A stretch of DNA of 64,000 nt from a bacterium (GTDB lineage: Bacteria > Patescibacteriota > Dojkabacteria > JAKAPS01 > JAJZLI01): positions 10,844 to 74,843 of the forward strand of contig DAHXLB010000032.1 in NCBI GenBank assembly GCA_027371855.1. The letters are read 5' to 3'. The notes beneath the pieces were generated by a model. It saw nothing but the letters and a program-made list of their open reading frames with translations. It was not told where the DNA came from and ran no database searches. Numbering within the stretch: position 1 is the first letter of the stretch; each line of letters starts with the position of its first letter. Positions 3,368 through 57,021 of the stretch are shown here, one piece after another. A program made the position numbers and the translations under genes.

Positions 3368-4072
3368 CTATATTAAATCTGGCCTATTTTTATGTGTTTT
3401 TTCAATACTTTTTTTCCTCCTCCATTCTTTTATTTTTTCATGATTTCCGGACAACAATACTTTTGGAACGCTAAAACCATTAAACTCTTCTGGTCTTGTA
3501 TATTGGGGATGCTCTAATAAGCTCCTTCCCCTTTCAACTCCTTCAAGAAAAGACCTAGGTCCAAAAGATTCCTCTTTTAAAGACTCATTGTTTCCCAAAA
3601 CGTTTGGTAGGAGTCTTGATATTGAATCAATAATAACTAGGGCTGCTGGTTCCCCACCAGAGAGAACAAAGTCCCCTATTGAAAGCTCTATGTTCGTGTA
3701 ATTTACAATTCTCTCATCAAAACCTTCGTATCTTGAGCATATAATTGTAATTTCTTTTAGATTTGCTAAAAATTCTGCCACACTTTGAGTATACTTCTCT
3801 CCGGAGGCAGACAGCATTACAGAATAACTATCGGGGCTAGATGTTTTTTTTGTTGACTCCAAAGCCTTATACAAAACATCCGCTCTTAATATCATGCCCG
3901 CTCCCCCTCCATAAGGGGAATCATCTACTGATCCTCGTTTGTCATATGCAAAATCTCTTAGATTTATAATATTTAAAGAGAAAGCCTTTATATCTAAAGC
4001 TTTTTTTATAGCACCAAAAAGGATATTTGATCTAAAATACTCAGGATAGAGGGTAATTATATTAATTTTCAT
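3368..4072 (-). CDS. trmD: tRNA (guanine37-N1)-methyltransferase
   Basis: MKINIITLYPEYF...SVDDSPYGGGAGMIL is the canonical TrmD SPOUT-fold N-terminus with its AdoMet-binding glycine loop. 234 aa. Confidence 0.9.
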   Translation of the reverse strand: MKINIITLYPEYFRSNILFGAIKKALDIKAFSLNIINLRDFAYDKRGSVDDSPYGGGAGMILRADVLYKALESTKKTSSPDSYSVMLSASGEKYTQSVAEFLANLKEITIICSRYEGFDERIVNYTNIELSIGDFVLSGGEPAALVIIDSISRLLPNVLGNNESLKEESFGPRSFLEGVERGRSLLEHPQYTRPEEFNGFSVPKVLLSGNHEKIKEWRRKKSIEKTHKNRPDLI

Positions 4073-4079
4073 TAATTTT

Positions 4080-4418
4080 TTATAAAAGAGAATCTATCTG
4101 ATTTGAAAAATCAGTTTTAGGTCTGACACCTATTAGCCTTGCAACTTCTTTTCCACCTTTAAAAAATAACACAGCAGGGATACTCATAATCTCATATTTT
4201 GCTGCAATATCAGGATTTTCGTCAGTATTAAGTTTACCAACCTTTATCTTGTCCTTGTAATCCTCTCCAATCTCTTCGATTACAGGAGATAACATATGGC
4301 AAGGCATACACCAGTCTGCCCAGAAATCTACTATATAAAGCATCTCTGACTTTAAAACTTCTTGGTCAAAATTTGAGGATGTTATTTCTTGGTGAGCCAT
4401 AACATTAATAATTAACAA
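4080..4418 (-). CDS. trxA: thioredoxin with non-canonical CMPC active site
   Basis: 112 aa with WADWCMPCHMLSP at the position of the canonical WCGPC. It is thioredoxin fold and length. Confidence 0.85.
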   Translation of the reverse strand: MLIINVMAHQEITSSNFDQEVLKSEMLYIVDFWADWCMPCHMLSPVIEEIGEDYKDKIKVGKLNTDENPDIAAKYEIMSIPAVLFFKGGKEVARLIGVRPKTDFSNQIDSLL

Positions 4419-4498
4419 ATATTAGTACTCTGAGTATACCACCAACCTTTGGGGACGACAACATAAAAATATTCGTCGTCGCCCCACAACATTACCTA

Positions 4499-5095
4499 TT
4501 AGTTATAACTCCATACTACTGGATAACCTTTAGCATCAACAGTTACGCCTTGTTGCATTCCTGTTGCGAAAACAACAAATCTTGTTCCTGTTGAATTTTC
4601 TGCCATATAGATGTTACCTGAAGGGAAAGAACTTAGATATTGTGAAAGTTCATTACCAACGGCAGATCCTTGTGTTAATAGTATACAAGACGAGGATACT
4701 GTAACTGTAGCTGAAGGTACTGTTCCTGTCCCTGTAACACAATTAGGAACTCCAATTGAAGATCCTGTTAGTGAATATCCGTAAGCTGCAGCCGTGTTTA
4801 TCAATGGAGATGTAAGCTGTGTCAAACCACCTGGGTATTGACCTTGGTGATCGTTAGTATACATCAAAATTGCATGTGCAACTTGCTGAACATCTGTCTG
4901 CCTAGTAGAGTTATTTGCATCTGCAATTCTCCCTACTGGGTTAATTGCTACAAACACAACAAGTGCAAGTATTGCAATAATAACTATAACTATTAATATT
5001 TCAATCAAAGTGAAACCTTTGGAGCTGGCTCCTTTAGATCTAGATAAAGCTTTTGCTTCTTTGGGGCTAGCCCCTTTAAAATTAGTTTTTATCAT
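4499..5095 (-). CDS. pilA: type IV (major) pilin, prepilin with 27-aa leader
   Basis: The class III signal is ...SSKG|FTLIEILIVIVIIAILALVVFVAINP, with Gly at -1, Phe at +1 and Glu at +5, followed by a hydrophobic alpha1 helix and a C-terminal Cys pair. Confidence 0.8.
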   Translation of the reverse strand: MIKTNFKGASPKEAKALSRSKGASSKGFTLIEILIVIVIIAILALVVFVAINPVGRIADANNSTRQTDVQQVAHAILMYTNDHQGQYPGGLTQLTSPLINTAAAYGYSLTGSSIGVPNCVTGTGTVPSATVTVSSSCILLTQGSAVGNELSQYLSSFPSGNIYMAENSTGTRFVVFATGMQQGVTVDAKGYPVVWSYN

Positions 5096-5109
5096 AATTC
5101 TCTTTCACC

Positions 5110-5175
5110 CCCTTTATCTGACTTATTATCAATTTATATTAGTATAAAATTTTTGTCAATCGTGATTGTCAAGCG
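5110..5175 (-). promoter_or_regulatory. putative sigma70-type promoter and SD for the downstream pilin. The -35 hexamer lies inside a tandem 14-bp direct repeat.
   Basis: The minus strand reads TTGACAATCACGATTGACAAAAATTTTATACTAATATAAATTGATAA...AAAGGGGGTGAAAGAGAATTATG. Two TTGACA hexamers fall within the tandem TTGTCAAKCGTGAT repeats at 5152-5179 (+ strand). An A/T-rich -10 candidate (TATAAA/TAAATT) follows, and a GGGGGTG SD lies 8 nt before the ATG. Confidence 0.45.
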
Positions 5176-5197
5176 TGATTATAAACCCGAAACCTTT

Positions 5198-5770
5198 TTA
5201 CCTGAATGCGTACAGCATATATGAAACTCCGTACCCCTTTGTGTCTGTTGTGATTCCTTGTTTTAGTCCCACAGCAAAAACAACAATATTGCTACCACTG
5301 CTATCTTGTCCCACATAATAAGGGCCTCCAGATGGAGCAGATGATAGATATGCTTGGATTTCGTTATATAATAAACTGCCTGAGGATACCTGAGCGCAGG
5401 TTCCAGCCGATGCTCCAGCCTGAACACAGTCAGGCAACCCTGGATTTCCATTTTCTATGTTATAGCCGGATCCTATGCCAGAACTCGAAACATTTGTCGT
5501 TATTAGAGGGGGAGGTAAAACTGGAATAGAAAGAGGAATTGTTCCATTGTGATCAATTGTATATATCTCTAAGGCGTGAACTATAGCTTTTACATTTTTC
5601 AAGCTTGTGGTGTTTTGGGAATCACTTATTCTACCTGCAGGGTTTATAGCAATAAACACAACAAGTGCAAGTATTGCAATAATAACTATAACTATTAATA
5701 TTTCAATCAAAGTGAAACCAGAATATCCACTAGTGTATTTTTTTAAATACTTAGTACTTTTCATTTGCAT
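5198..5770 (-). CDS. type IV pilin paralogue with 18-aa leader
   Basis: Carries YSG|FTLIEILIVIVIIAILALVVFIAINP. 66 nt (5654-5719) are identical to 4952-5017 of the neighbouring pilin gene. The C-terminal domains have diverged. Confidence 0.8.
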   Translation of the reverse strand: MQMKSTKYLKKYTSGYSGFTLIEILIVIVIIAILALVVFIAINPAGRISDSQNTTSLKNVKAIVHALEIYTIDHNGTIPLSIPVLPPPLITTNVSSSGIGSGYNIENGNPGLPDCVQAGASAGTCAQVSSGSLLYNEIQAYLSSAPSGGPYYVGQDSSGSNIVVFAVGLKQGITTDTKGYGVSYMLYAFR

Positions 5771-5879
5771 ATAATTAATAATACATTAACATTGTTTTTT
5801 TTAAAATACCAAAGGCTTATTATTTTTATAGATTAAAATATCACTATAAAACTAGGGGTTTATTTAGTTGCTTGAAAAG

Positions 5880-5888
5880 TTATCCACA
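5880..5888 (+). promoter_or_regulatory. perfect consensus DnaA box (TTATCCACA) upstream of dnaA
   Basis: AAAGTTATCCACAATTTG lies about 100 bp upstream of the dnaA start. It is an exact match to the E. coli R-box consensus. Confidence 0.55.
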
Positions 5889-5984
5889 ATTTGATACCCT
5901 TACATGTTACCGGCCCCTTAAAGGATTACCGTCCTTGAATTTTATTTTTTATGCCTAATATACTTAGACTTTTTATTTTTAACT

Positions 5985-7415
5985 ATGCATAAAAATTTAG
6001 AGAAGATTCAAGATTCAAATTCAAAAGACCACAAAAATGGCTTAAATTCAAAAGATTCACTTCCTGGAGTTTGGAAGGTTGCTGTTTCTCAAATAAGATT
6101 AAATATCTCTGAAAAAAATTATCATATTTGGTTTTCAAAAACAAAACTACTTCAAATAAAAGACGGTATAGCAAAAATATCTTGCCCAAATTCTTTTACT
6201 TTAGATTATATTAATCTAAATTATCTAAACATTACAAGAAAGGTCTTATCTGAGGCTTATGGGAGCCCGGTGGATATAACATTGTTTGTAAAAAAGAGTG
6301 ACTTTGTTGAAAACACACCTTTGTTTAATTCAATGAACGAACAAACATCAAAAGAAGTTTTGAAAAAAAATCTTGATGCAGAGAAAAATTCTTCTTTAAT
6401 AAAGGCCGGTCTAAACCCTAAATATTCACTAGAAAATTTTATTGTGGGCTCGTCTAATAGGCTTGCACATGCTGCTGCATGCGCGATTATAGATAAACCA
6501 GGAGAAATATATAATCCATTTTTTGTATTTGGAGGAGTAGGCCTTGGAAAAACACATCTTATGCAGGCAATAGGAAATTCTATACTAGAAAAGAATCCTG
6601 ACTATAAGGTTGCTTACGTAAGCAGCGAAACATTTCTAAATGAACTTATTAATTCTATAAAAAAAGGTAAATCTGAAAACTTCAGAAAACAATATAGAGA
6701 AAATGATGTCCTTATAATTGACGATATTCAGTTTATATCTGGAAGAAAAGGGACTCAGGAGGAATTTTTCCACACCTTCAATACACTTCATCAGGCAAAC
6801 AAACAAATTATTTTAGCGTCTGATAGACATCCGCGGGATATAGAAAATTTAGAAGAAAGACTTGTATCTAGATTTGAAGGAGGGATGGTGGCAGATATTT
6901 CTCTTCCAGATGAAGAAACAAGGGTAGCAATTTTAAGAAAAAAATGCGAAGAACGTAATATAAAAATAAATGATGAGGTATTATCAATGATTGCAATTAG
7001 TATTGAGTCTAATATAAGGGAATTAGAGGGTGTTTTAACAAAGGTAATTGCTCTACAAACTTCACTAAATAAAGAGTTGACTCCAGAAGATATATCAAAA
7101 TATATAGGAATATCTAGAAAAAAAAGACAGAAAAGGTTGAGACCAAAAGATGTTATAGATTCTATTTGTGAAAAATATGAAGTTTCAAGAAAAGATATAT
7201 TTGGAGAAAGAAGAACTGTAAAAGTTGTACTCCCCAGACAAATTGCTATGTATATTCTACGTACAGATTTAAATCTTTCACTTGTAGAAGTTGCATCAAT
7301 ACTCAAAAGAAAAGACCACACAACAATAATGCACGGTGTGGATAAGATTGAGAATTTAATAGATATAGATTTACAAATTAAGGACCAAATAGCAGAGATA
7401 AGACATCAATTATAG
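5985..7415 (+). CDS. dnaA: chromosomal replication initiator protein DnaA
   Basis: Walker A GVGLGKTHLMQAIGN and an AAA+ domain III are present. The C-terminal domain IV helix-turn-helix reads VLPRQIAMYILRTDLNLSLVEVASILKRKDHTTIMH. Synteny is dnaA-dnaN. Confidence 0.95.
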   Translation: MHKNLEKIQDSNSKDHKNGLNSKDSLPGVWKVAVSQIRLNISEKNYHIWFSKTKLLQIKDGIAKISCPNSFTLDYINLNYLNITRKVLSEAYGSPVDITLFVKKSDFVENTPLFNSMNEQTSKEVLKKNLDAEKNSSLIKAGLNPKYSLENFIVGSSNRLAHAAACAIIDKPGEIYNPFFVFGGVGLGKTHLMQAIGNSILEKNPDYKVAYVSSETFLNELINSIKKGKSENFRKQYRENDVLIIDDIQFISGRKGTQEEFFHTFNTLHQANKQIILASDRHPRDIENLEERLVSRFEGGMVADISLPDEETRVAILRKKCEERNIKINDEVLSMIAISIESNIRELEGVLTKVIALQTSLNKELTPEDISKYIGISRKKRQKRLRPKDVIDSICEKYEVSRKDIFGERRTVKVVLPRQIAMYILRTDLNLSLVEVASILKRKDHTTIMHGVDKIENLIDIDLQIKDQIAEIRHQL

Positions 7416-7764
7416 CTCTTTTAAAGAATGTTTTTTATATGTGTATATTATGAATATTGTGTGTGTACAATATGTTCATAATTATTAAATTTTGTGTGTA
7501 TTTTAGAAAAACGATAATTTAACAGTACACAAAGAATAAACATTTTATGTTAATTATACACATAAATAACTATTGGTTTTTATTGTGGTATGTATAAAAA
7601 ATATGAGTGTTTTTGCAATTTATAAGATAATTTTATATTATAAACAGGAAATACACCAAGATTTAATTAGATAGAATATGTGTTTTATTAATTATATCTA
7701 ACTTATAAACAATACCTAATAAGACTACTAAATTTATATATTATTAAAAGAAGAAGATAGGTCT
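7416..7764. other. candidate oriC: AT-rich dnaA-dnaN intergenic region with DnaA-box-like motifs
   Basis: The 349-bp spacer is very A+T-rich. It contains TTATACACA (7553-7561, which fits TTWTNCACA) and several TGTGTRTA and TGTGGTATG variants on both strands. A perfect box also lies upstream of dnaA at 5880. Confidence 0.6.
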
Positions 7765-8943
7765 ATGGAAATAAACGTAGTTCGTGAAAATTTATTAGAA
7801 TCTTTAAATTTTACAAGCAAGGTTCAAAACGTGAGATCTAGTATTCCAATACTATCTAATGTTCTTCTAAAAACAGAAGAAGGAAAAATTAAAATTTGTG
7901 CAACTGATATGGAGCAAACAATCGTCTCATATTGTGGAGTTGAAATTATAAAAGAAGGCTCTATTACAGTTAATTTAAAGAATTTATATGATTTTCTATC
8001 AAATCTTAAATCTGAGGCTATAAATATAAAGGTTGAAGATTTCAAACTTGTAATTTCAGATTTGAAGAATGAGATTTCTCTAAATACTATACCTTCAGAT
8101 GAGTTTCCTGAGTTTAAGGATAAAAAGAATGACTATTTTATAAAAATAAATGCACTAGATTTTTCAAATGCTGCTGACAAAGTAACATTTGCTTCATCAA
8201 CAGATCCAACTAAAACAATACTAAATGGTATCTTGTTTGAGACAGGTATATCATTAAAAGATGTAGACTCAAAATCTTTAGGTAAAGAAAAAAAAGATTC
8301 TTTAAAATTAATTGGAATAAATGGTTTTAGGTTTGCAAGTTATAAAATATCAGGGGTTGAGGTAAAAAAGGAAACTGATAGAGATATTATAATCCCAACA
8401 ACCTCTGTTGACAGTATTTCTAAAATAATAAAAGAACTTAATGTAGATGAAGAAACATATATATACATCTCTGAGACTGAGAATAAAAACCAGTTAATAT
8501 TTGAGATATTGAATGTAAAATTTATATCTAGAATTATTGATGGAAAATATCCAGATTATAAAAAAATATTTCCAGAATCTTTTGACAATAAATTTACTAT
8601 TAATTTTGAAGAATTTAAAGACGTAGTTAAACTTTCTAATATTTTTAAATTCAAAGACATATCAAGGATATACTTAGATTTTAATCCTTCTAAAGATGAA
8701 ATAAAAATATATTCTTCGCTTGCCGAGGTTGGTGAGAGTGTAAGTTTTATAAGTACTAAAATAAAAGGAGAAAAGGGTGTTATTTGTTTTAATTCTAAAT
8801 ACCTTATGGATTTTTTAAACCATGTTGAGGGTAATGAACTTCAAATACAAACAAATAACCCTCAAAAGAAGAAAGTCTCTCAATTTGAAGATACCTCAGA
8901 CCCTAATTTTACATACCTTATGACCCCACTCCAAGAGAGATAG
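7765..8943 (+). CDS. dnaN: DNA polymerase III beta subunit (sliding clamp)
   Basis: 392 aa. MEINVVRENLLESLNFTSKVQ...IPILSNVLL matches the DnaN domain I start. It has three-domain length and sits immediately after dnaA and oriC. Confidence 0.9.
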   Translation: MEINVVRENLLESLNFTSKVQNVRSSIPILSNVLLKTEEGKIKICATDMEQTIVSYCGVEIIKEGSITVNLKNLYDFLSNLKSEAINIKVEDFKLVISDLKNEISLNTIPSDEFPEFKDKKNDYFIKINALDFSNAADKVTFASSTDPTKTILNGILFETGISLKDVDSKSLGKEKKDSLKLIGINGFRFASYKISGVEVKKETDRDIIIPTTSVDSISKIIKELNVDEETYIYISETENKNQLIFEILNVKFISRIIDGKYPDYKKIFPESFDNKFTINFEEFKDVVKLSNIFKFKDISRIYLDFNPSKDEIKIYSSLAEVGESVSFISTKIKGEKGVICFNSKYLMDFLNHVEGNELQIQTNNPQKKKVSQFEDTSDPNFTYLMTPLQER

Positions 8944-8958
8944 TATTAATCTGGGATT

Positions 8959-9273
8959 TTAATCCAAGGATTTAATTTTAACCCTTATATCTTTTACCTT
9001 GATAGTTTTATCTTTATTATTAACAAGTATGGCATTAATACTATCTATTATTAAATTCTTTTGAAGAATAATTTCTTGAGCAATAACAGAACTTGGCGTT
9101 ACTATTATGATTTTACCTTTACGTATATATTTATATTCTAGATTGGGATTTTTATTATTAAGACCTAATTCTTTTTCAAATAAATCCATGAGTGTTTTTT
9201 CCACAGCATCTCTTAATTTTATACTTTTTTTTACAACAAGGATTTTTCTTTTAAAATTTATTTGCTCAAGCAT
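8959..9273 (-). CDS. hypothetical small protein
   Basis: 104-aa ORF convergent with dnaN, with no TM segment. A DUF721/DciA-like role is conceivable from its position but not supported by motifs. Confidence 0.35.
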   Translation of the reverse strand: MLEQINFKRKILVVKKSIKLRDAVEKTLMDLFEKELGLNNKNPNLEYKYIRKGKIIIVTPSSVIAQEIILQKNLIIDSINAILVNNKDKTIKVKDIRVKIKSLD

Positions 9274-10842: not shown

Positions 10843-11327
10843 AGTGACATTTGCATAGTTTTATAAAAAGTTAAAAATAATAGAACACTAAATACCAAGT
10901 TTAATATGATAACAAGATATGCAATTTCTTTTATTCTATAATAAATTTTTAAATATATAAATATTGACACTAAGAAGAATAATATGTCGGCAAATATAAG
11001 AAAAAATAAAACATACTTAGATATTAGCTGTGGAACCCGATTAAAAAATAATACGGGAACCAAAGAGGGTACAGACAAAAAATATTTTACTATGAAAAAT
11101 AGCAAAAGCAAGATTATATAGAAGCTAACTATGCTATAAAATAGGAATAAAGGTCTTTTCCATAGTAAAAGCCTTTTTTGCACTCTAATACCTTCCTTTA
11201 TTTTTGAACCTAGGGACCCTGATCTTGGGTACCCGTATTTTAGGGATGTAAAAATATTATCTTTCACATTCCCAACCTCTAGTGGTATGGCCCCATATGA
11301 AGAATTTTGGTTTTTATTATCTTCCAT
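10839..11327 (-). CDS. hypothetical 4-TM membrane protein
   Basis: Hydrophobic helices. It overlaps the upstream gene by 4 bp, so it is co-transcribed. Confidence 0.4.
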   Translation of the reverse strand: MEDNKNQNSSYGAIPLEVGNVKDNIFTSLKYGYPRSGSLGSKIKEGIRVQKRLLLWKRPLFLFYSIVSFYIILLLLFFIVKYFLSVPSLVPVLFFNRVPQLISKYVLFFLIFADILFFLVSIFIYLKIYYRIKEIAYLVIILNLVFSVLLFLTFYKTMQMSL

Positions 11328-11349: not shown

Positions 11350-13449
11350 CTACTTTATAAGAAGGTTTATATACTGATACTTAGGGTTTGTTATATACAA
11401 GTTAAGGGTGTTATTTTTTATGTCTTGTCCAACAGTTTTAATTATAACAACTTTTTCTGTTTCATTGGAGTTTGTATATGCGCCAACAATGTTTTGTCCT
11501 AGAGGGGTAAGGTTATTTTGTGCATTTTTTGTTATGTATATAACGCCGGTATTATTTACTTTAAATGCTCTGTTAACGAGATTTGATATATTTGTTGATG
11601 TTACAGCTAAAGATGCACTTTTTGGTATTTGATTTAAATCACCTGCATTGTTTGGATTTATAACACTCATAATCTTTCCATCAGAAATTGTTACATACAC
11701 ATATTTTGTAATATTCCCTTGTATGTTAGACAGTGAGTTATTGTTAAGATAAATAAGAGTATAGGATTTACCCCCAGACAAGAGAGCGTAGTATGTTTGA
11801 GCCCTATTTTGGATATTTAAAAAACTGCTGTTTGCAAAACTAATTTCCAAAGACAGTCTTTGATACAAAGCAGACATTAACGAATGAGGACTTAACTCTA
11901 ATGCTGCAGTCTTTGCCTGCATTGATCCAAAAGAAGGAGAAGAGAGTGTCTGCATGTTTGAAATGAAGGCAGAATTTGTAGTAGTTAAATTTAGGGTATT
12001 TATAGAATTTATACTTTTAGTTGCATTTATTAAATAATACATAGCATTATTAAGGTTTAAAGCAGAAAGGGTCGTTTGTTTGGTAGGGGTAAAAAGACCA
12101 AATATTGACAATACTGGAGCATACATCCCAACATACGTTTTAAGAGTAGATATGTTGGATTGGGCATTTTTGTTATATAACAATGCTTCGCTGTATTGTC
12201 TAGAAGATAAATATTGTTGTTGTAGGGAAAGATTTGACAAAAGAGATTCATAGTTTATATAGGAATCTATTAATGGTGCAAGAATAAAAATAACGATAAG
12301 TATTACTATTAGGTATTTTAGGCCCTTCTTCTTTCTCCTTGTTTTTGTTAATTGTTTTTTTCTCTCTGGAGTAAACACTCCTTGATTAATATATTCGTTT
12401 TTTAAATATTGCTCCTTTATTTTATCAAAGTTAGAAAGATTAACTTTTTTAAAGGATCTGGATCCGAATGGATTTTTTACCTCTTCGTTTTTTGGAATAA
12501 CAGGTGCAGAATTTTCATCTTTAAATATAGAGGTAGGAACAATTTTACTAGTTACTTTTTCTCTTACGGTTTTTATTATTCCGTTCTCGAAACTAGTGTC
12601 GGGGGTCCAAGAGTCAAGGTTTCCAATGGTTGTTTTTATTCTATCCTCGGGCATATTTAACTCTTGGTCATTTTTTTCTTCTTCTTCAACTTTAAATCCG
12701 GTAAGGTCTGAAATTCTAAATGCCAGAGAAATATTAGACACATCTTCCTTGTTTGAAATCTTATATTCGCCCTCAAGGTCAGAGAACAAAACTTTAATAA
12801 TTGCATTCACAGCATCATCTTCGTACAAATAGTGGTAAAATCTATTTCTATTTTTAACTTTTATGATTTTATCTTCATCTATGCTTTTCAATATTGAATT
12901 TATAGGATTATTCAAAAATGCATCCATTGTTTCCCCGTAAACTTCCCCCATCTCTACAAGGCTACCAGTGGCGAGAGTTCCATTTCCCTCCCGCATTTCT
13001 TTTCTAGTTTTTGTTTTCAAACCTTCCTCTACTTCGTTAAATTGTTCATCGTCTGTTTTATTTATATTTGTAACAACTAAATACCTGCTATGGTTTTTTA
13101 GGGCTATCTCAAAAAATAGATCTATGTTTTTAAGTATTCTTGCTGGAGTTATTCCATAAATGCTATTAAACCCTCCAAAAAAAATTGCAAAATTTATTTC
13201 CTCTAGTATTTCTACTAAGTCTGAGTTAGATGCTATGTCTAGTATTTTTATTTCTCCTTTACTATGTTTATCTTTTATTAGTTTTAATTTTCTTACGCTC
13301 TCTGAGTTGTTTTTTGAAAATTCGTCTAATATTATTACATTGCCTCCTTCTTCTACTATATTTTCGGCCAATTTAATTGCGCAAAAATTTCCGCCATTGA
13401 ATATCAGCGTGGTAGGAAGTTTTTTTGCAAATGTAATTTTTGTAGTCAT
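11350..13449 (-). CDS. large membrane-anchored protein with a cytoplasmic Rossmann-like N-domain and an S/T/N-rich extracellular C-domain
   Basis: 699 aa. The N-terminus has IFNGGNFCAIKLAENIVEEGGNVIILDE, which is possibly NAD(P)-binding-like, though only weakly. A single TM (LKYLIVILIVIFILAPL) occurs around aa 375, followed by a long low-complexity ectodomain. Confidence 0.45.
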   Translation of the reverse strand: MTTKITFAKKLPTTLIFNGGNFCAIKLAENIVEEGGNVIILDEFSKNNSESVRKLKLIKDKHSKGEIKILDIASNSDLVEILEEINFAIFFGGFNSIYGITPARILKNIDLFFEIALKNHSRYLVVTNINKTDDEQFNEVEEGLKTKTRKEMREGNGTLATGSLVEMGEVYGETMDAFLNNPINSILKSIDEDKIIKVKNRNRFYHYLYEDDAVNAIIKVLFSDLEGEYKISNKEDVSNISLAFRISDLTGFKVEEEEKNDQELNMPEDRIKTTIGNLDSWTPDTSFENGIIKTVREKVTSKIVPTSIFKDENSAPVIPKNEEVKNPFGSRSFKKVNLSNFDKIKEQYLKNEYINQGVFTPERKKQLTKTRRKKKGLKYLIVILIVIFILAPLIDSYINYESLLSNLSLQQQYLSSRQYSEALLYNKNAQSNISTLKTYVGMYAPVLSIFGLFTPTKQTTLSALNLNNAMYYLINATKSINSINTLNLTTTNSAFISNMQTLSSPSFGSMQAKTAALELSPHSLMSALYQRLSLEISFANSSFLNIQNRAQTYYALLSGGKSYTLIYLNNNSLSNIQGNITKYVYVTISDGKIMSVINPNNAGDLNQIPKSASLAVTSTNISNLVNRAFKVNNTGVIYITKNAQNNLTPLGQNIVGAYTNSNETEKVVIIKTVGQDIKNNTLNLYITNPKYQYINLLIK

Positions 13450-13462: not shown

Positions 13463-13511
13463 TAGATGTTAACCTCCCAGAGGCTGACCTCCAGAGGTTG
13501 GTCTCCAGAGG
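13463..13511. repeat. GC-rich tandem array of four ~14-15 bp CCTC(C)NGAGG hairpin units
   Basis: AACCTCCCAGAGGCTG ACCTCCAGAGGTTG GTCTCCAGAGGCTAG CCTCCCGAGGCCAG. Each unit carries inverted CCTC/GAGG arms. The array sits between the stop of 13512..14132 and the start of 11350..13449. Confidence 0.7.
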
Positions 13512-14132
13512 CTAGCCTCCCGAGGCCAGTCTTAAAGGTATTTCAAAAAGTTGAACCTTAACATAAACATCATACCCTTCTTTGAGATTAACTTCTATAC
13601 TCTTTTGAATATACCCTGGAGAGGCCAATGTTATATTATAAGCTCCAGGAGGTAATATTTTTTCTAGGAAAGAAGAGGTTTTTATATATTTTTTATTAAT
13701 AAAAATTTCAGACTTTGTATTCACACTAAGATTTATTGAGGATGAACTAGAAAAGTTATTTTTAAAATAGAATATTGCACCAGAAGAAAAATTTGATGAA
13801 GGACCCATGTTCCATTCAATTATTGTCGCGTTGTTCCCTTCAAAAGGGATTGTCTCTAGAAATGGAGAGTAAAAATTTGAGGTAGATGCTAATCTTATTA
13901 TTTTTACAGAGTGTACCCCAGAACTTATATTGTGTACGGACAAAGGAGTTGTTCCATAATATTTGTTGTCAATATATACTTTTCCTTCTCCGCTTTTCAG
14001 GGTTACCACCAAAGAAGAAGTTCCTCCTTTTCGGTATATATTAAATATTTGTTTTGTTACTGTTGGCTCAATTATTATAACAATTAGGGCCAAAAGGAGG
14101 ACTAACATTATTTCGGGCAGTTTTCTTTTCAT
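13512..14132 (-). CDS. PEGA-domain secreted/anchored protein
   Basis: N-terminal TM/signal (IMLVLLLALIVIIIEP). Two PEGA-like segments: GKVYIDNKYYGTTPLSVHNISSGVHSVKI and SEIFINKKYIKTSSFLEKILPPGAYNITLASPGYIQKSIEV. Confidence 0.5.
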   Translation of the reverse strand: MKRKLPEIMLVLLLALIVIIIEPTVTKQIFNIYRKGGTSSLVVTLKSGEGKVYIDNKYYGTTPLSVHNISSGVHSVKIIRLASTSNFYSPFLETIPFEGNNATIIEWNMGPSSNFSSGAIFYFKNNFSSSSSINLSVNTKSEIFINKKYIKTSSFLEKILPPGAYNITLASPGYIQKSIEVNLKEGYDVYVKVQLFEIPLRLASGG

Positions 14133-14948: not shown

Positions 14949-15034
14949 CCGTCTAGACGGGGACCTTTCAGGCGGAGGGCATCTTGGTGGTAATAAAAAA
15001 TTAATTTAAACATAAAATTTTAATAAAAAACATT

Positions 15035-15634
15035 ATGACAGAGAAAAAACAAAAAAAAGACCTAGGTCAAAAAGATTTAGATCCAAAGGGTCTGGACCCA
15101 AAAGTAGGAGATGTAACAGAAGAAGTTCTTGAGGAGATTGACAAAAGAGATGGAGAAATAAAATCTTTAAAAGAGGAACTGGAAAAAACAACAAATTTAC
15201 TAAAGAGTGCATTGTCTGATTATCAGAATTTAAAAAAGAGAACGGAAACGGAGAAGGATAATATGGTTGGGATAACGAATAGTTTGCTACTTCGTCAATT
15301 TTTAGAAATATCTGATGATATTTATACATACATTTCTCATCTTGAAAAGAGTGAGAAAGATGGGAATGAAAAAGTTAGTATCTCTGAAATAAAAAATGGA
15401 ATAAAGCTTATTTTTGATAAATGTAATGATATTGTCAAAAGTCAGGGGGCTCAGATTATGGAAGTTGCAGAAGGAGATACGTTCTCTCCTTTGCATCATG
15501 AAGTAATAGGGACAGTAAATGTTGAAGACCCAGAGAAAGAGAACAAGGTAATCCAAGTAGTAAGGGTTGGGTATGAGCAGAACGGAAAAGTTATAAGGGC
15601 AGCAAGAATAATTGTTGGAAAAAAAGAATCTTGA
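15035..15634 (+). CDS. grpE: nucleotide exchange factor GrpE
   Basis: Coiled-coil N-terminus and a GrpE C-terminal beta domain (VIQVVRVGYEQNGKVIRAARIIVGK). Position is hrcA-grpE-dnaK. The N-terminal KDLGQKDLDPKGLDPK is encoded by palindromic mini-repeats. Confidence 0.85.
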   Translation: MTEKKQKKDLGQKDLDPKGLDPKVGDVTEEVLEEIDKRDGEIKSLKEELEKTTNLLKSALSDYQNLKKRTETEKDNMVGITNSLLLRQFLEISDDIYTYISHLEKSEKDGNEKVSISEIKNGIKLIFDKCNDIVKSQGAQIMEVAEGDTFSPLHHEVIGTVNVEDPEKENKVIQVVRVGYEQNGKVIRAARIIVGKKES

Positions 15635-15692
15635 TTCAAGAATCTTGATTCAAGAATCTTGATTTAGAAATTAGTTTAGAAATTTAATTTAG
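15624..15692. repeat. tandem 14-bp palindromic repeat (AAGAATCTTGATTC x3) followed by a TTTAGAAATT(A) x3 repeat
   Basis: AAGAATCTTGATTCAAGAATCTTGATTCAAGAATCTTGATTTAG AAATTAGTTTAGAAATTTAATTTAG. It overlaps the grpE stop and lies upstream of dnaK. Confidence 0.7.
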
Positions 15693-15705: not shown

Positions 15706-17676
15706 ATGGCAAAAATATTAGGAATAGATTTAGGGACAACAAATTCAGCAATGGCTGTTATGGAAGGAGGGACACCTACTATAATAGAAAATAGCGAGGG
15801 TGCACGTACAACCCCTTCTGTTATAGCAATATTAAATGATAAATCTAGGGCAGTAGGTGTTACGGCAAAAAATCAGATGGTTCTAAATCCGAAGAATACT
15901 TTTTATTCTATAAAAAGACTTATAGGAAGAACATTTGACGACCCAGAGGTTCAGAGAGATGTAAAATTACTCCCATTTGAGATAAGAAAATCCGGAGGTG
16001 GAGGGATAGAAATTAAATTTGGAGATGAATGGTTGGCTCCAGAGGCAATTTCAGCAATGGTTTTGTCTAAACTAAAACAGGACGCAGAAAGTTTTCTTGG
16101 AGAAAAAATAACAGAAGCTGTAATTACAGTTCCTGCATACTTTGACGATTCTCAAAGGCAGGCAACCAAAAATGCCGGCAAAATAGCAGGCTTGGATGTA
16201 AAGAGAATAGTAAATGAACCTACTGCCGCAGCATTAGCTTATGGTTTTGATAAAAAAGGGGAACAGACAATTGCAGTATATGACCTTGGTGGAGGAACTT
16301 TTGATATTTCAATATTAGAACTTGGAGATGGAGTTTTTGAGGTTATATCAACGAATGGGGATACCCATCTTGGAGGAGATGATTTTGACAGAAAAATAAT
16401 TGATTACTTGGCTGAAGATTTTAAAAAAACTAACGGCGTTGATCTAAGGAAAGACTCTTCTGCGCTACAAAGACTTAAAGAGGCTGCTGAAAAAGCAAAG
16501 ATAGAACTTTCTTCTACGGCTCAAACACAAATAAATATTCCTTTCATAACCGCAGACGCATCTGGCCCAAAACATTTAAACATAACTATGACAAGAGCTC
16601 AGCTTGAGAATCTGGTGGGCGACTTAGTAAAAGAAACTATGGAGCCAGTAAAAAAAGCCTTGGCTGATGCAAAAAAGACTCCTTCTGACATTGATGAAAT
16701 TATTCTTGTAGGAGGGATGACTAGAATGCCAGCGATAGTTGATGCAGTAAAAGAATTTTTTAAGAAGGAGCCAAATAAAAGCGTGAACCCAGACGAAGTT
16801 GTTGCTGTTGGAGCAGCAGTTCAAGCTGGAGTCCTAGCAGGAGATGTTAGAGATGTAACATTACTTGACGTAACACCCCTATCTTTAGGACTTGAAACGT
16901 TGGGAGGTGTATCCACAAGACTTATAGAAAGGAATTCTACAATCCCTATTCAAAAAAAACAGGTATTTACTACTGCCGCAGATAGCCAGACTTCCGTTGA
17001 GATACATATATTGCAAGGAGAAAGGGAGATGGCAGCAGATAACAAAACATTGGGGAGATTTATTCTTGACGGTATTGCTCCCGCTCCAAGAGGTATTCCT
17101 CAAGTAGAGGTGGCCTTTGATATAGATGCAAACGGTATATTAAAAGTATATGCTTCTGATAAGGCTACTGGTAAAAGTCAGCATATTACTGTAACGGCAA
17201 ATACTGCTTTATCAGACGAAGAGGTTGAGAAACTCCTTAAAGAAGCAAAGGAACATGAAGAAGAAGACAGGGCAAAGAAAGAGGGTGTTGAGATTAAAAA
17301 TACTGCAGAAACGGTAATATTTTCATCTGAAAAATTTGTAGATGAAAACAAAGATAAAATTCCGGAAGATAAAAAAACTCAACTAGCCGATAAAATTGCA
17401 AATCTAAAAGAAGTTTCTTCAAAAGAACCGGTGTCAAAGGAAGAAATTCAAACTGCAATAAATGAGCTTGAAACTTTGATGCAAGAGATTGGAAGTTCTA
17501 TGTATCAACAGTCTGAGCCTCAAGGAGGAGAGCCTCAAGGAGGCGAACCACAGGGTGGAGAGCATCAGGAAGGTGACCCAGAATCAGGATCTTCAGAAGG
17601 GGGGCAAACTCCGGGGGAGCAAACTCCACCAGAAGATGGAGGAGAACCTGTTGCTAAAGAAGGAGAGGTGCTTTAG
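15706..17676 (+). CDS. dnaK: molecular chaperone DnaK (Hsp70)
   Basis: [26 protein letters not shown] and the full Hsp70 architecture are present. The C-terminal tail carries EPQGG pentapeptide repeats. Confidence 0.97.
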
Positions 17677-18836: not shown

Positions 18837-19826
18837 ATGGATAAACATGAAATAGCAATAATTGGACTTGGAAAAATGGGATTAAATCTAGCCTTGAATC
18901 TTCAGGATAAGGGGATGTATGTTTACGGTTATAATAGAAGTGAAGATGGTCGGGTTGAGGCATCAAAAAATGGTATAAAGACAGCTACTTCAACAGAAGA
19001 GCTAATTTCTTTTTTTGAAGGGAGAAAAAAGGTTATCTGGATAATGGTTCCTCAGGGAGCGCCTGTAGAGGCAGTTTTATTTGATGACAATGAGGGTATA
19101 GTTAAACAACTAAAAACCGAAGATTTAATAATTGATGGGGGAAACTCATATTTTAGAGATTCAATTTCAAGGCATGAAAAACTTGAAGCTGCAGGTATTG
19201 ATTTTTTAGATTGTGGAACTAGTGGTGGAATGCTTGGAGCAAGATCAGGTGCATGTTTGATGATTGGGGGAGACCAAAATGTTTTTGATAGTCACAAATG
19301 GATTTTTGAGGCAGTTGCAGAGAAAAATGGATATTTATATATTGGACCTGCCGGGTCTGGACATTATGTTAAGATGATCCACAACGCTATAGAGTATGGG
19401 ATGATGCAGTCAATAGCAGAAGGACTTAATCTTATAAAAAATGGGGAGTACAAAGATATAGACATAAAAAATCTCTTAGGCGTATGGAATCATGGCAGTA
19501 TTATAGAATCATATCTAACAAAGATTACTCAAGAACAGATGGGTCAATATTCTCCAAATTTGGATGAAATTGAAGGCATAGTAGAGGACAATGGAGAGGG
19601 GGCATGGACGTTGAAAGAGGCCATTGATAAAAGGGTGCCTTTTGAGACAGTATCTCACGCATTGTTTTCTAGATTTTCATCAAAAGGGAATAGTCTTTAT
19701 GCAAATAAAGTTTTGGCTCTAATGAGAAATGGCTTTGGGGGGCATAGGCTGATCAAAGAGAATAATGGTTCTCCCGTCTTAGGTCCAATAGACCAAGATC
19801 CAAAGGACCAAGAACTAAGAGTCTAG
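18837..19826 (+). CDS. gnd: 6-phosphogluconate dehydrogenase-like (short, decarboxylating, NAD(P)-binding form)
   Basis: IAIIGLGKMGLNLALNL Rossmann motif, followed by IIDGGNSYF and a GTSGG...GACLMIGGD block typical of the short 6PGDH family. The 3' end carries an in-frame palindromic repeat. Confidence 0.75.
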   Translation: MDKHEIAIIGLGKMGLNLALNLQDKGMYVYGYNRSEDGRVEASKNGIKTATSTEELISFFEGRKKVIWIMVPQGAPVEAVLFDDNEGIVKQLKTEDLIIDGGNSYFRDSISRHEKLEAAGIDFLDCGTSGGMLGARSGACLMIGGDQNVFDSHKWIFEAVAEKNGYLYIGPAGSGHYVKMIHNAIEYGMMQSIAEGLNLIKNGEYKDIDIKNLLGVWNHGSIIESYLTKITQEQMGQYSPNLDEIEGIVEDNGEGAWTLKEAIDKRVPFETVSHALFSRFSSKGNSLYANKVLALMRNGFGGHRLIKENNGSPVLGPIDQDPKDQELRV

Positions 19827-19873
19827 GCTCAAAGGACCTAGGCCCAAGGATCTAGATCCAAGGGGTCTGGACC
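19791..19873. repeat. cluster of CTAG/CTGG-centred palindromic mini-repeats with 15-bp period
   Basis: GACCAAGATCC AAA GGACCAAGAAC ... GGACCTAGGCCC AA GGATCTAGATCC AAG GGGTCTGGACC. It spans the stop codon of the 6PGDH-like gene and the following intergenic region. Confidence 0.7.
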
Positions 19874-19915
19874 TAAGCATCTATATGCAAAATTAATTTT
19901 ATTAAAAAAAGTATT

Positions 19916-20585: not shown

Positions 20586-21911
20586 ATGATTAAATACGAT
20601 TACACCAATATGCTTTATCCTAAGGTACAGGATAAGGCTATAAAAAAAGAAGATCTCTTTGATTTTGTATCACCCACATTTAGAAAGGAGGACCTTACAT
20701 TTAGGGACTTGATATATAAAGATACTGCAGATATTAAGGCTCTTGGGGAGCATATAAAAGAAAAATTTAAAAAATATGTAGTTGTAGGAATTGGAGGGTC
20801 AGATTTAGGGTCAAGGGCAATAGTTGGGGCCTTAAAACAAAAAAGTGATACTAAGGTTGATTTTATAGGTGCAAATACGGATCCTGATCAGGTTTCGGAT
20901 TTTTTTAATAATCTTGATGATCTAGATAAAACAGTTTTTAATATTATCTCTAAGTCCGGAGAGACAGTGGAAGTAATAGCTATATTTTTATATATTATAA
21001 ATTTCATTAAAGAGAAATTGGGTGCTCAATATGTGAGCAAAAATATTTATGTAACAACAAGTTCTCCCACTGGAGGGGCCAAAGAAAGTTCTCTTTATAA
21101 AGTTGCACAAAAAGAAGGCATTAATATAATAGAAGGTGTTTCTGATGTAGGAGACAGATTTTCTGTATTATCAGTCATAGGGATGTTAACAGCCGAAGTG
21201 ATGGGTCTAGATTCAGAAGAATTCCTTTCTGGTGCAAGAGAAGTTGATGATAAATGTTCAAGTTTAAGTCCATATTCCAATGATGCATTGATGTTTGCAG
21301 AGCTTAATTTTTTATCTCATAAATTATATGGTAAAAATATAGGCGTAGTTATGCCATATGCTGAAAAGCTAAGGAGTTTTGCTTTTTGGTATAGGCAACT
21401 TTGGGCAGAAAGTTTGGGGAAGAAACTTGATATAAACGGGAGTATTGTAAATACTGGAATAACCCCAATAGCATCGCTCGGGTCGACAGACCAACACTCT
21501 CAATTACAATTGTACAATGAAGGACCAAATGATTTAATAGTAACCTTTATTTTTGGAGAAATCTTTGATACTGATCCACGAATAAAAACAGATATAAAAG
21601 AACTTGAATATCTTAATGGGAAAGGCTTCAGAGAATTAATTTCTATAGAAAGAGAGGCTACAGCATTGTCATTGCGCGAAAACCAAAGATCAAACGGAAC
21701 AATTATCTTAGATAATATGTCTCCAAAGACTATGGGTAGACTTTTTTATTTTTTTGAACTTGCATGCTCGTATCTTGGGAGTATGTTGGAAATAGATACT
21801 TTCAATCAACCAGGGGTTGAGAAAGGAAAGGAATACATGTATGCCTTACTTTCAAAACCAGGATTTGAAGAAGAAAGGCAAGTTTTGGATAAGAATTTAA
21901 AAGATGATTAA
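20586..21911 (+). CDS. pgi: glucose-6-phosphate isomerase
   Basis: VVVGIGGSDLGSRAI matches the SIS-domain signature GIGGSxLG, and the 441-aa length fits PGI. Confidence 0.85.
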   Translation: MIKYDYTNMLYPKVQDKAIKKEDLFDFVSPTFRKEDLTFRDLIYKDTADIKALGEHIKEKFKKYVVVGIGGSDLGSRAIVGALKQKSDTKVDFIGANTDPDQVSDFFNNLDDLDKTVFNIISKSGETVEVIAIFLYIINFIKEKLGAQYVSKNIYVTTSSPTGGAKESSLYKVAQKEGINIIEGVSDVGDRFSVLSVIGMLTAEVMGLDSEEFLSGAREVDDKCSSLSPYSNDALMFAELNFLSHKLYGKNIGVVMPYAEKLRSFAFWYRQLWAESLGKKLDINGSIVNTGITPIASLGSTDQHSQLQLYNEGPNDLIVTFIFGEIFDTDPRIKTDIKELEYLNGKGFRELISIEREATALSLRENQRSNGTIILDNMSPKTMGRLFYFFELACSYLGSMLEIDTFNQPGVEKGKEYMYALLSKPGFEEERQVLDKNLKDD

Positions 21912-34077: not shown

Positions 34078-34149
34078 GATCAGATCTTGAGATTTTAATC
34101 CTAGGATTAAAATCATAGGGTTGCACTCCTAGGGTCTAGGTCATAGAGT
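34078..34149. repeat. palindromic mini-repeat cluster including a perfect 24-bp palindrome
   Basis: GGATCAGATCTTGAGAT, then the perfect palindrome GATTTTAATCCTAGGATTAAAATC at 34091-34114, then CTCCTAGGGTCTAGGTC. It lies in the divergent pilC/GGDEF intergenic region. Confidence 0.7.
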
Positions 34150-52852: not shown

Positions 52853-52855
52853 ATT

Positions 52856-53539
52856 ATGTCAATATTATCAGATCCTAAAAGGATACCAATAGTAGCAACA
52901 ACTCAAGACCATCTTGATATAGAGGATATAAAAGATAATCTTCTTATTTTAAAGAATGGGAATGTATGTATCGTTATTGAGACTTCTGCTGTAAATTTTT
53001 ATCTTTTATCTGAGATTGAACAAGAGAGTAAGATATATGCATTTGCAGGGTTACTAAACTCTCTAGGCTTTTATATTCAAGTTATGATACACACTGAGAA
53101 TATTGATATATCTAGGTATTTAAAACACCTTGATGAATATAAGTTAAAACAGAAGGACCCTAAAATTAAATACCAGATAGATATTTATAGAAAAAATATT
53201 AAGGATCTGATTGTGAAAAATAATGTTTTGGATAAACATTTTTATATAGTGATACCGTACCTTGCATCTATGCCTAAGAAACCTTCTTTCATAAAACAAT
53301 TTTTTGGTAAACAGGCTAAATTAGGAGATACTACTAAATTGGTTGAAGCTGCAAAAATTAGACTTTATCCAAGAAGAGATCATATAATAAAACAACTTTC
53401 TAGAATGGGCCTTAGATCTAGACAGTTAGAAAGTGCAGATTTGATAAAACTTTTTTATAGTATATATAATCCTATGAATGCTAAAATTAGAGGAGATTTT
53501 GATGAATATACAGGTCCAATAGTTTCTGGATCAAAATAA
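52856..53539 (+). CDS. stand-alone VirB4 N-terminal-domain-like protein (split VirB4, part 1)
   Basis: IPIVATTQDHLDIEDIKDNLLILKNGNVCIVIETSAVNFYLLSEIEQESKIYAFAGLLNSLGFYIQVMIHTENI parallels the extreme N-terminus of proteobacterial VirB4/TrbE (YLPYIGHLSDHIVLLEDGSIMSIARIDGVAFELEEIEMRNARCRAFNTLFRNIADDHVSIYAHLVRH in A. tumefaciens VirB4). No TM segment. An 18-bp gap separates it from the ATPase ORF. Confidence 0.5.
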   Translation: MSILSDPKRIPIVATTQDHLDIEDIKDNLLILKNGNVCIVIETSAVNFYLLSEIEQESKIYAFAGLLNSLGFYIQVMIHTENIDISRYLKHLDEYKLKQKDPKIKYQIDIYRKNIKDLIVKNNVLDKHFYIVIPYLASMPKKPSFIKQFFGKQAKLGDTTKLVEAAKIRLYPRRDHIIKQLSRMGLRSRQLESADLIKLFYSIYNPMNAKIRGDFDEYTGPIVSGSK

Positions 53540-53556
53540 TTATTATAGATGAATAT

Positions 53557-56894: not shown

Positions 56895-56970
56895 ATATTT
56901 AGAAAAAATTCTACTCTAATTTTGAAAAGATTGCAAATTTTCCTTTTATAAGTGTCTTTTATTTAAATAT

Positions 56971-57021
56971 TTGACATTTTTTATAACTCATCTATAATAG
57001 ACATATTTAACTCATCTATAA
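56971..57021 (+). promoter_or_regulatory. strong sigma70-type promoter (TTGACA-N16-TATAAT) upstream of the second T4SS module, with a 13-bp direct repeat AACTCATCTATAA x2
   Basis: TTGACA at 56971-56976 and TATAAT at 56993-56998. The AACTCATCTATAA repeat occupies 56985-56997 and 57009-57021. The ATG of the first gene is at 57028. Confidence 0.5.

Follow-up and report, generated by a model that had tools for sequence, protein, structure and literature searches.

The repeat unit and its main array

The stretch analyzed here, 64,000 nucleotides of contig DAHXLB010000032.1 (positions 10,844 to 74,843 of assembly GCA_027371855.1) and hereafter called the window, derives from an uncultured bacterium in the phylum Patescibacteria (candidate phyla radiation, CPR). 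It is AT-rich, with a G+C content of 32%, and the closest named homologues of its Ndh-type NADH dehydrogenase (Ndh) and its GrpE are proteins of 'Patescibacteria group bacterium'. Its genes and spacers carry a very short palindromic repeat, the subject of this report. The main array (19775-19888) forms the C-terminal tail of a short 6-phosphogluconate dehydrogenase-like (Gnd-like) gene at 18837-19826, supplies the TAG stop codon of that gene (19824-19826), and runs on into the spacer before the transaldolase gene.

The unit approximates AAAGGAYCTAGRTCC and consists of a 12-nt dyad, built of a 5-bp arm, a 2-nt centre, and a second 5-bp arm, plus an A-rich spacer of 2-3 nt, for a total of 14-15 nt. 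The dyad consensus is GGAYC-TA-GRTCC, with G...C ends and a CTAG or CTGG centre, and the combination of dyad and A-rich spacer means that successive units join at CC/AAAGG. Units occur singly or in short arrays, in spacers as well as in frame within housekeeping genes, and repeat clustering placed the arrays of GrpE, the Gnd-like gene, and an open reading frame (ORF) of 187 residues in one family (D2). A first-pass annotation of the window had described a dispersed family of palindromes with ∼15-bp periodicity, located both between genes and inside reading frames. This description is borne out: every unit that it listed is present at its position, the design was seen at all sites that it named and at several others, and units are shared across loci in spacers and ORFs. 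The possible relative that it placed at 8950-8985 has the same 5+2+5 design (GGATTTTAATCC at 8954) with AT-rich arms. Members beyond that annotation are the array at 5018-5077, single units at 12454, 3551, 36656, 62065, and 58546, and the arrays at 13472-13532, 15624-15664, and 58464-58502.

Palindrome statistics in the window

The palindromes exceed expectation, but not in the manner that the first-pass annotation had proposed; the unusual feature is the context of CTAG. Perfect palindromes with a CTAG core and a length of 10 bp or more numbered 15 in the window, compared with 4.7 ± 2.2 expected, and sites matching GGAYCTAGRTCC with at most two mismatches numbered 24 versus 4.8 ± 2.2, a value reached in none of 100 shuffles. 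For a test of the flanks, the left and right flanks of every site were permuted within each of the 16 palindromic tetramers (2000 permutations). CTAG was the only tetramer of the 16 with an excess of complementary flanks (33 versus 12.6 ± 3.2, 0/2000), and CTGG, a one-step variant of CTAG, also showed the excess (27 versus 11.4, 0/2000). Perfect 5-bp inverted repeats separated by a 2-nt gap were about twofold over-represented (60 versus 28.3 ± 5.2, z 6.1), the excess was weaker for gaps of 0 and 3 nt (z 3.1), and no excess over expectation was found for gaps of 1 and 4-10 nt. What the annotation had proposed was an enrichment of CTAG itself. That claim fails, since the tetranucleotide is at expectation in the window, with 160 occurrences versus 190 from mononucleotide composition (observed/expected, 0.84) or 157 from a Markov model (observed/expected, 1.02).

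Covariation was analyzed in 33 array-defined units. The four arm pairs were complementary in 79.5% of cells, compared with 61.6 ± 2.5% after shuffling, and double-sided arm changes numbered 29 versus 11 expected (0/500). The arms thus stay complementary while their sequence changes. The members of the family and the candidate members are collected in Table 1.

Table 1. Palindromic units, arrays, and related insertions in the window
Feature	Position	Strand	Units and context
Main array, ∼8 units at 14-15 bp spacing	19775-19888	+	CGTCTTAGGTCC, AGACCAAGATCC, GGACCAAGAACT, GAGTCTAGGCTC, GGACCTAGGCCC, GGATCTAGATCC, GGGTCTGGACCT, GCATCTATATGC
GrpE N terminus, three units, period 15	15058-15102	+	AGACCTAGGTCA (15058), AGATTTAGATCC (15073), GGGTCTGGACCC (15088); peptide KDLGQKDLDPKGLDPK
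Four units in Ndh, AGA spacers	35528-35587	+	GGATCTAGATCC, GAATCTAGATTC, GCACCTAGGTGT, GAGCCTAGACAA; peptide EDLDPENLDSEHLGVESLD
Three units in 187-aa ORF of unknown function	58823-58867	+	GGACCTAGGGCC, GGACCTGGGTCC, GGATCTAGATCT; other open frame (GGA CCT AGG); peptide KGPRATGPGSKGSRSK
Intergenic block, T2SS-F-like gene (-)/GGDEF gene (+)	34078-34149	.	24-bp perfect palindrome GATTTTAATCCTAGGATTAAAATC (34091), then ACTCCTAGGGTC, GGGTCTAGGTCA
Array in leader peptide of type IV pilin-like gene (4499-5095)	5018-5077	-	plus-strand GGAGCTGGCTCC, AGATCTAGATAA, AGCTTTTGCTTC, GGGGCTAGCCCC; peptide KGASPKEAKALSRSKGASSK upstream of GFTLIE motif
46-bp G+C-rich window-specific insertion directly after hrcA stop	14949-14994	+	starts with perfect palindrome CCGTCTAGACGG
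Four 14-bp units with other arms (ACCTC-CA-GAGGT type)	13472-13532	-	gives TAG stop of PEGA-domain gene (13512-13514); fills spacer to next gene
Three identical 14-bp units (GAATC-TT-GATTC)	15624-15664	+	AAGAATCTTGATTC; over grpE stop (TGA, 15632-15634) and grpE-dnaK spacer
Single unit	12454-12465	.	GGATCTGGATCC; window-specific 15-bp in-frame insertion in 699-aa ORF 11350-13449
15-bp in-frame insertion in Pgi, window-specific	21064-21078	+	CTCC-CACT-GGAG dyad; abuts CCAAAG
15-bp in-frame insertion, window-specific (ACCC...GGGT dyad)	11216-11230	-	ACCCTGATCTTGGGT; adjoins CTAG unit; relatives have AACTCTAGAGTT or GAGTCTAGATTT
Units near C terminus of 133-aa ORF 58168-58569	58464-58557	+	GAATCACTGATTC/GAATCAATGATTC, period 15 (58464-58502), and GGGGCTGGTCCC (58546)
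Isolated unit in trmD	3551-3562	.	aaaAGACCTAGGTCCaaa
Isolated unit	36656		GGATCCAGATCC
Isolated unit in DnaJ G/F linker	62065		AGATCTAGGTCT
DnaK C-terminal 15-bp repeats (EPQGG)	17515-17567	+	unit GCCTC-AAG-GAGGC, dyad-symmetric

Effects on reading frames, proteins, and RNA

In GrpE and Ndh, the unit is read in the frame GAT CTA GAT CCA AAG (xLDPK), CTA serving as a leucine codon in the GrpE units, whereas the 187-aa ORF, the pilin leader, and DnaJ use the frame one base over, GGA TCT AGA TCC AAA (GSRSK, GPRAx, and GASPK). The third frame gives a TAG stop and occurs only at the two genes that end in an array, the Gnd-like gene and the PEGA-domain gene; the counts of CTAG by frame are 68/68/2. 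The period is 15 in every array within an ORF and 14, or a mixture of 14 and 15, outside ORFs. CTA accounts for 6 of the 10 leucine codons in the arrays, compared with 15% elsewhere. Because the same units are found in spacers, in two open frames, and in the third frame only as a terminal stop, we conclude that the repeat arises at the DNA level and not at the protein level.

In the AlphaFold model of Ndh, the insert (residues 268-283 of the protein) forms a coil between two strands with a predicted local distance difference test score (pLDDT) of <50, and the other copies within ORFs are situated in termini, leaders, or linkers. Units have been retained only where they do no harm, either as multiples of 15 bp in disordered termini and loops or at the end of a gene, with an in-frame TAG as its new stop. 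At the RNA level, six of the seven array regions folded more stably than their shuffled counterparts (z -2.1 to -4.5) because adjacent units pair with each other, with the array at 13472-13532 reaching -39.5 kcal/mol (z -4.5). No terminator-like T-run follows the array hairpins, an Rfam scan of the feature returned no match, and a tRNA scan returned nothing. The side effects of the repeat are pentapeptide inserts (xLDPK, GSRSK, and GASPK), changed gene ends, and stable hairpins in spacers.

Lineage-specific insertions among relatives

The window was compared with syntenic loci of relatives at ∼80% protein identity (L004/L005/L062, L006/L007, and L061/L063, with L062 and L004 belonging to the lineage of GCA_054637875.1), with loci at 91% DNA identity (L008/L009), and with loci of its own population (L001-L003). 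At every site examined, the units lie in a variable segment flanked by conserved sequence, and both filled and empty sites were found at six or more loci. The tail of the Gnd-like gene is a block of ∼118 bp that is absent in L061, L062, and L063, and the closest relative, L008, lacks three units. The Gnd-like gene of L062 is 370 aa long through N-terminal 15-bp arrays (13875-13988; GAACC-NGA-GGTTC and GGATC-AA-GATCC) that the window lacks, so the same gene has been hit at opposite ends in different lineages. At the GrpE N terminus, L061 has three different units and 10 extra residues, and L062 has only a degenerate version. The Ndh insert is 33-45 bp longer in the window than in the relatives at 80% identity, and the segment is wholly absent in distant homologues.

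Spacers and gene ends behave in the same way. Between conserved flanks, the spacer of the T2SS-F-like and GGDEF genes measures ∼78 bp in the window, 32 bp in L004, and 11 bp in L006, and the palindrome at 34091 is extended at its centre relative to GATTTTAGTAAAAT of L004. The extra 46 bp of the hrcA-grpE spacer are absent in L061, L062, and L063, and the array that ends the PEGA-domain gene is a window-specific segment of 57 bp that the relatives lack. The array at 15624-15664 is present in the window and L062, whereas L061 and L063 have only GAATCTTAG; the DnaK tail of L062 carries two extra units. In the pilin leader, the flanks are ∼98% identical to those of L061 and L062, while several substitutions and a 6-bp indel distinguish the units (GGGGCTAGCCCC versus GGAGCTAGCCCC; GGAGCCAGCTCC versus AGATCAATGTCT versus a form shorter by 6 bp), and one change, GGAG to GGGG, yields a perfect palindrome.

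An unbiased three-way alignment of 20 kb (∼82% pairwise identity) contained, over its three lineages together, 15 lineage-specific insertions of 12-60 bp. The best dyad arm of these insertions averaged 3.93, compared with 1.20 ± 0.47 in length-matched random segments (0/300), and arms of at least 5 bp were present in 53% of the insertions versus 7% of the random segments. The lengths of in-frame indels peaked at 15 and 30. Several were single insertions of exactly 15 bp that keep the frame of housekeeping genes; those in the 699-aa ORF and in Pgi, where the window and L061 both have one, are examples.

The dyads are enriched at z ∼6 in the window lineage and at z ∼3.3 in L061/L063. In the lineage of GCA_054637875.1, the enrichment, which does not include the CTAG type, reaches z 3.7 in L062 and is weak in L004. 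No enrichment was found in L006, in relatives with ∼50% GrpE identity (L132-L134), or in 37 unrelated control loci (511 versus 502; 196 versus 204). The enrichment is confined to one shallow clade of Patescibacteria (∼80% identity). Within the population of the window, L001-L003 are 100% identical to it across the arrays, L002 differing by a one-base gap only. Because three independent assemblies are identical, turnover occurs on the scale of species divergence and not of strains. A one-base gap in L002 cuts dnaK into two ORFs (3672-5229) and represents a strain or assembly variant. The possibility that the arrays are assembly artefacts was rejected, given that independent assemblies from ENA, NCBI, and Logan agree on them exactly and that relatives from other projects have in-frame arrays of their own.

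Source of the units and a model for their spread

The 15 insertions showed no excess of direct or inverted matches to their own flanks; 13 had no source there, and 2 were plain copies of adjacent sequence. A local template switch was rejected as the origin of the units, as the longest reverse-complement match to their own flanks averaged 4.60 nt, compared with 4.78 nt for random flanks. Slippage followed by divergence was likewise rejected for the CTAG arrays, in which neighboring units agree at 7.57 of 12 positions and units of different loci at 7.42 of 12. Near-identical 15-18-mers recur at unrelated sites and in different lineages, for example AAAGGTCTTGACCCAAAG in Pgi of L061 and AAGGGTCTGGACCCAAAA in GrpE of the window, and the junctions are almost always CCAAAG/AAAGG, those of single insertions included. 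The lack of a flank source, the absence of greater likeness between neighbors, and the near-identical copies at unrelated sites indicate that the units arrive as ready-made dyads of the family. Each addition to the genome involves a single unit or a few, in spacers and genes alike.

The first-pass annotation had raised an associated nuclease or transposase. No gene for a transposase, a nuclease, or a restriction-modification system was found among the 20 Pfam-scanned ORFs of the window or in the annotated loci of the relatives. Because none was seen, and because the CCAAAG junctions are near constant, we favor replication-linked templated copying. Our preferred reading, to which we assign a probability of roughly one half, is a dispersed, non-autonomous, lineage-specific family of mini-repeats that is non-coding in origin and spreads in this manner. 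Spread would require no transposase. The hairpin-prone dyad would stall replication, and the nascent end would re-anneal through the short A-rich junction (CCAAAG), copy one period of 14-15 nt, and then return; re-annealing out of register would make an array grow, whereas re-annealing on a distant copy would create a new site. Quasi-palindrome template switching could afterwards re-perfect the arms. Template switching is established in other systems as a source and maintainer of hairpins (PMC8794818, PMC8604942). The units themselves are most likely neutral or selfish.

Several observations weigh against this reading. A search for donors of the recent insertions, which covered the 20-64 kb available for each lineage, yielded no donor copy, none being closer than 3 substitutions, and the step of copying in trans is a proposal of ours. 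The three independent assemblies of the population are identical across the arrays, so the process would be slow on population time scales. Some arrays, at 15624 and in the DnaK tail, are accounted for by plain tandem duplication. Furthermore, generic slippage or template switching does not predict that CTAG/CTGG centres and a 2-nt gap are so sharply preferred, a specificity that could betray a sequence- or structure-specific enzyme. It is conceivable, though we think it unlikely, that the 14-15-nt unit represents a minimal, previously undescribed class of mobile DNA in CPR bacteria, a 'nano-palindrome' whose active insertion depends on a clade-specific enzyme or replication defect that recognizes CTAG/CTGG-centred hairpins.

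Alternative explanations

Local mutational hot spots would offer another route, in which slipped-strand mispairing and intrastrand template switching create short quasi-palindromes and enlarge them on the spot, the likeness between loci being convergence. Consistent with this idea, the array at 15624 consists of three identical 14-mers, the 14-bp insertion at the Tal end of L062 and the units of the DnaK tail duplicate their neighboring sequence (with direct matches of 8 and 13 nt), the units of the pilin leader turn into better palindromes while their flanks barely change, the 34091 palindrome looks as if it had grown from the centre of an older one, and template-switch mutations of this kind are on record (PMC8794818, PMC7202029). 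Convergence fits poorly, however, with the 13 of 15 insertions that have neither a direct nor an inverted source in their flanks, with neighboring units that are no more alike than units of other loci, with the near-identical 15-mers in Pgi of L061 and GrpE of the window, and with the restriction of the effect to CTAG/CTGG centres. We regard hot spots as a doubtful explanation.

A functional role in cis is less probable still. The units might be mRNA hairpins for 3'-end protection or attenuation, as in repetitive extragenic palindromic (REP) sequences and bacterial interspersed mosaic elements (BIMEs), or cruciform or dyad sites for a protein or for a restriction, nicking, or methylation system; the first-pass annotation had itself suggested regulatory hairpins or restriction and nicking sites. 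The stable array folds described above would suit such a role, as would the location of several arrays at gene ends or in operon spacers (hrcA-grpE-dnaK and gnd-tal) and the enrichment of the arm end TC-NN-GA (270 versus 200). Against recognition sites, the arms vary and co-vary, so that there is no single recognized sequence, and no nuclease, methylase, or restriction-modification gene was seen nearby in the scanned ORFs or, for nuclease and restriction-modification genes, in the annotated loci of relatives. Regulatory hairpins cannot account for the many copies inserted singly and in frame, with a length of 15 bp, into genes such as Pgi, Ndh, and GrpE, and neither the Rfam scan nor the sequence downstream of the hairpins, which lacks a T-run, lends them support. 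Moreover, presence and absence vary among close relatives at every examined site.

It is improbable to a somewhat greater degree that the units are excision footprints of a cut-and-paste transposon or a miniature inverted-repeat transposable element (MITE). Such footprints would combine a 2-3-bp target duplication with a few terminal bases of each inverted end, would automatically be palindromic, and would add 14-15 bp. Both arms are indeed new at the insertion sites, unit and spacer together measure exactly 14 or 15 bp, and A-rich triplets stand on both sides of the units. IS630-type elements target CTAG/TA. Nevertheless, no transposase or intact element was seen in the 64-kb window or in ∼120 kb of relatives, where a weak TnpB-like match in L005 was the only candidate; co-varying arms would require many element subfamilies; TT, TG, and CA centres occur as well; and the flanking repeats at single insertions are inexact. 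Selection at the protein level for low-complexity linkers such as DLDPK, with the DNA palindromy incidental, would suit the location of all ORF copies in termini, linkers, or a disordered loop and has a precedent in the Borg tandem repeats, which show that selection for disordered regions is possible (PMC9879509), but it is very improbable and has largely been refuted by the reading frames and the intergenic copies, because the same DNA units lie in spacers and in a second frame coding unrelated peptides, the third frame gives stop codons, leucine is encoded by an otherwise minor codon, and arm covariation is a nucleotide-level property.

Comparison with known repeats

Rickettsia palindromic elements (RPEs) are single elements of ∼100-150 bp known as 'selfish DNA in protein-coding genes' of Rickettsia. 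The likeness to them that the first-pass annotation had drawn holds for protein tolerance, the Ndh insert being a predicted disordered loop: as with RPEs, dispersed palindromic DNA is found in spacers and in frame in housekeeping genes at tolerated surface or disordered positions, is lineage-specific, and has no associated transposase. Membership in the RPE class fails on size. The units here comprise 12 nt plus a 2-3-nt spacer, about one tenth of an RPE, are often tandem with differing arms, and reside in Patescibacteria; the largest array, ∼115 bp, is made of dissimilar units.

REP sequences are 20-40 bp long, extragenic, carry a GTAG or CGTC tag, and are linked to REP-associated tyrosine transposases (RAYTs) (PMC3733652). 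The units resemble REPs and BIMEs in being short imperfect palindromes that are sometimes clustered and form hairpins in operon spacers. In contrast, most copies here are inside ORFs, the dyads are 12 nt with a CTAG/CTGG centre, CGTC occurs only by chance (in 14949), and no RAYT (Y1 transposase) gene was found in the ORFs and loci surveyed. With regard to MITEs, the units have A-rich triplets on either side, the repeats bordering single insertions are inexact, and no insertion sequence was seen in the loci examined.

Quasi-palindrome template switching explains how short inverted repeats are created and re-perfected in one step, how several bases change together in compensation, and how coding sequence is affected (PMC8794818, PMC8604942, PMC7202029). 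Compensatory changes are evident here in the arm covariation and in the GGAG to GGGG change of the pilin leader. Classic events, however, copy a neighboring arm, whereas these units bring both arms without a source in the flanks (the 4.60 versus 4.78 nt comparison above) and belong to a fixed 5+2+5 sequence family. The amino acid tandem repeats of Borgs (PMC9879509) are similar in being a genome-specific burst of short, A-rich tandem repeats that insert disordered peptides and evolve rapidly between relatives, and the unit length here is, as there, divisible by three in ORFs (15) and not in spacers (14 or mixed). Borg repeats are nonetheless perfect, unique to a locus, and not dyad-symmetric, whereas these units are imperfect, shared among loci, and individually palindromic. 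Variable number tandem repeats (VNTRs) are distinguished by near identity of units and copy-number variation within a population; adjacent CTAG-type units agree at 7.6 of 12 positions, and the three assemblies are identical. PARCEL elements are likewise tandem coding repeats with dyad-symmetric DNA (PMC2996958). Their unit of 75 bp (25 residues) lies in dedicated ORFs, in contrast to 15 bp and 5 residues here. Cyanobacterial HIP1 is similar as a very short palindrome abundant in coding and non-coding DNA. HIP1 is a fixed 8-mer (GCGATCGC) that is thought to spread by substitution and not by insertion. By the defining features of these classes, the family is not an RPE, REP/BIME, PARCEL, or ordinary VNTR and is probably not a MITE; it behaves like a miniature, tandem-prone analogue of RPEs.

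A three-unit DNA pattern was used to scan viral and metagenome collections. The strict pattern was very rare, and the matches were mostly unrelated 7-bp microsatellites; the design of the window seems to recur only in L123 and in L069/L080, a viral pair with one array on opposite strands, and several other metagenome matches (e.g. L092, L093, and L127) repeat one palindromic CTAG unit identically. L123 (metagenome contig SDBT01090012.1, 43% G+C) is unrelated to the window and codes for F-type conjugation, with TraU/TrbC/TraN/TraF-like proteins. The N terminus of its TraN-like protein (1470-1530) contains three perfect CTAG palindromes with different arms, GAGTCTAGACTC AAG GGGTCTAGACCC AAG GAATCTAGATTC (peptide DPRSLDSRGLDPRNLDSK), so similar arrays can arise in unrelated organisms. 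The IMG/VR contigs L069 (4028-4061) and L080 (7693-7726) have GAATCTAGATTC with an ATA spacer three times at a 15-bp period. BLAST of the main array against plasmid and phage collections gave no match. A search with a synthetic DLDPK-repeat peptide also came back empty, as no candidate had three words in common with it, an outcome that carries little information. A contig scan with Ndh returned only relatives from other phyla (≤37% identity), which served as negative controls.

Related repeats and genomic setting

The repeats of the DnaK tail (17515-17567) have the same architecture as the units described above, and their membership in the family is uncertain. LPQGG repeats at the N terminus of a VirB4/TraG-like ATPase (53675-53727) have 15-bp units, GCCTCAAGG(A/G)GG, in common with the EPQGG array of DnaK, and repeat clustering joined these two dyad-symmetric arrays in one family (D1). 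Together they may constitute a second dispersed family of units.

On the plus strand of the window, perfect 5+2+5 dyads have the centre TG 11 times and CA 3 times, whatever the gene orientation, and perfect CTGG units number 9 versus 4 for CCAG (small numbers). The bias in TG and CA centres, itself based on small numbers, may reflect replication-strand asymmetry. The window probably spans the replication origin because dnaA (5985-7415) and dnaN (7765-8943) are present and the GC skew changes sign near 6 kb (region 5770-8943).

Elsewhere in the window, a stretch of ∼7 kb (37757-44689) has a G+C content of 38-39% against the 32% background and encodes a 1454-aa DUF2341/FN3 protein and an 855-aa fusion of an ABC ATPase with a MacB-FtsX permease. 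It is likely an acquired island, as L004 has no counterpart at the syntenic place, where Ndh, AAA_14/DUF4143, and PIG-L genes are found. A CPR-type secretion/pilus cluster (51077-62814) comprises a PrgI-like protein, two VirB4/TraG-like ATPases, and a sortase, followed by dnaJ; several small ORFs in this region had no Pfam match. In L005 (275-1330), an rRNA adenine dimethylase gene is lengthened by a weak Cas12f/TnpB-like C-terminal match.

Implications

CPR/Patescibacteria genomes are tiny and are considered nearly devoid of repeats and mobile DNA. If a 15-bp palindromic unit is the dominant class of insertion in a clade and lands in gene ends, pilin leaders, and genes such as GrpE, Pgi, and Ndh, it would represent a new way for streamlined genomes to acquire sequence. 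The insertions alter protein termini and create disordered linkers and stop codons, and the case is a natural experiment that separates mutational from selective origins of hairpins. The sharp 5+2+5 geometry and the CTAG/CTGG centre point to a definable molecular cause, one that is traceable by comparing gene content with sister lineages free of the burst. In practical terms, the units can mislead gene callers through shifted stops and frameshifted tails, and they can mislead the alignments of marker proteins used in CPR phylogenomics. If active insertion of a nano-palindrome were true, the unit would be the smallest known self-propagating repeat, with pentapeptide inserts that remodel essential proteins and with new stop codons, and it would provide a tractable model for selfish DNA invading the genes of streamlined genomes.

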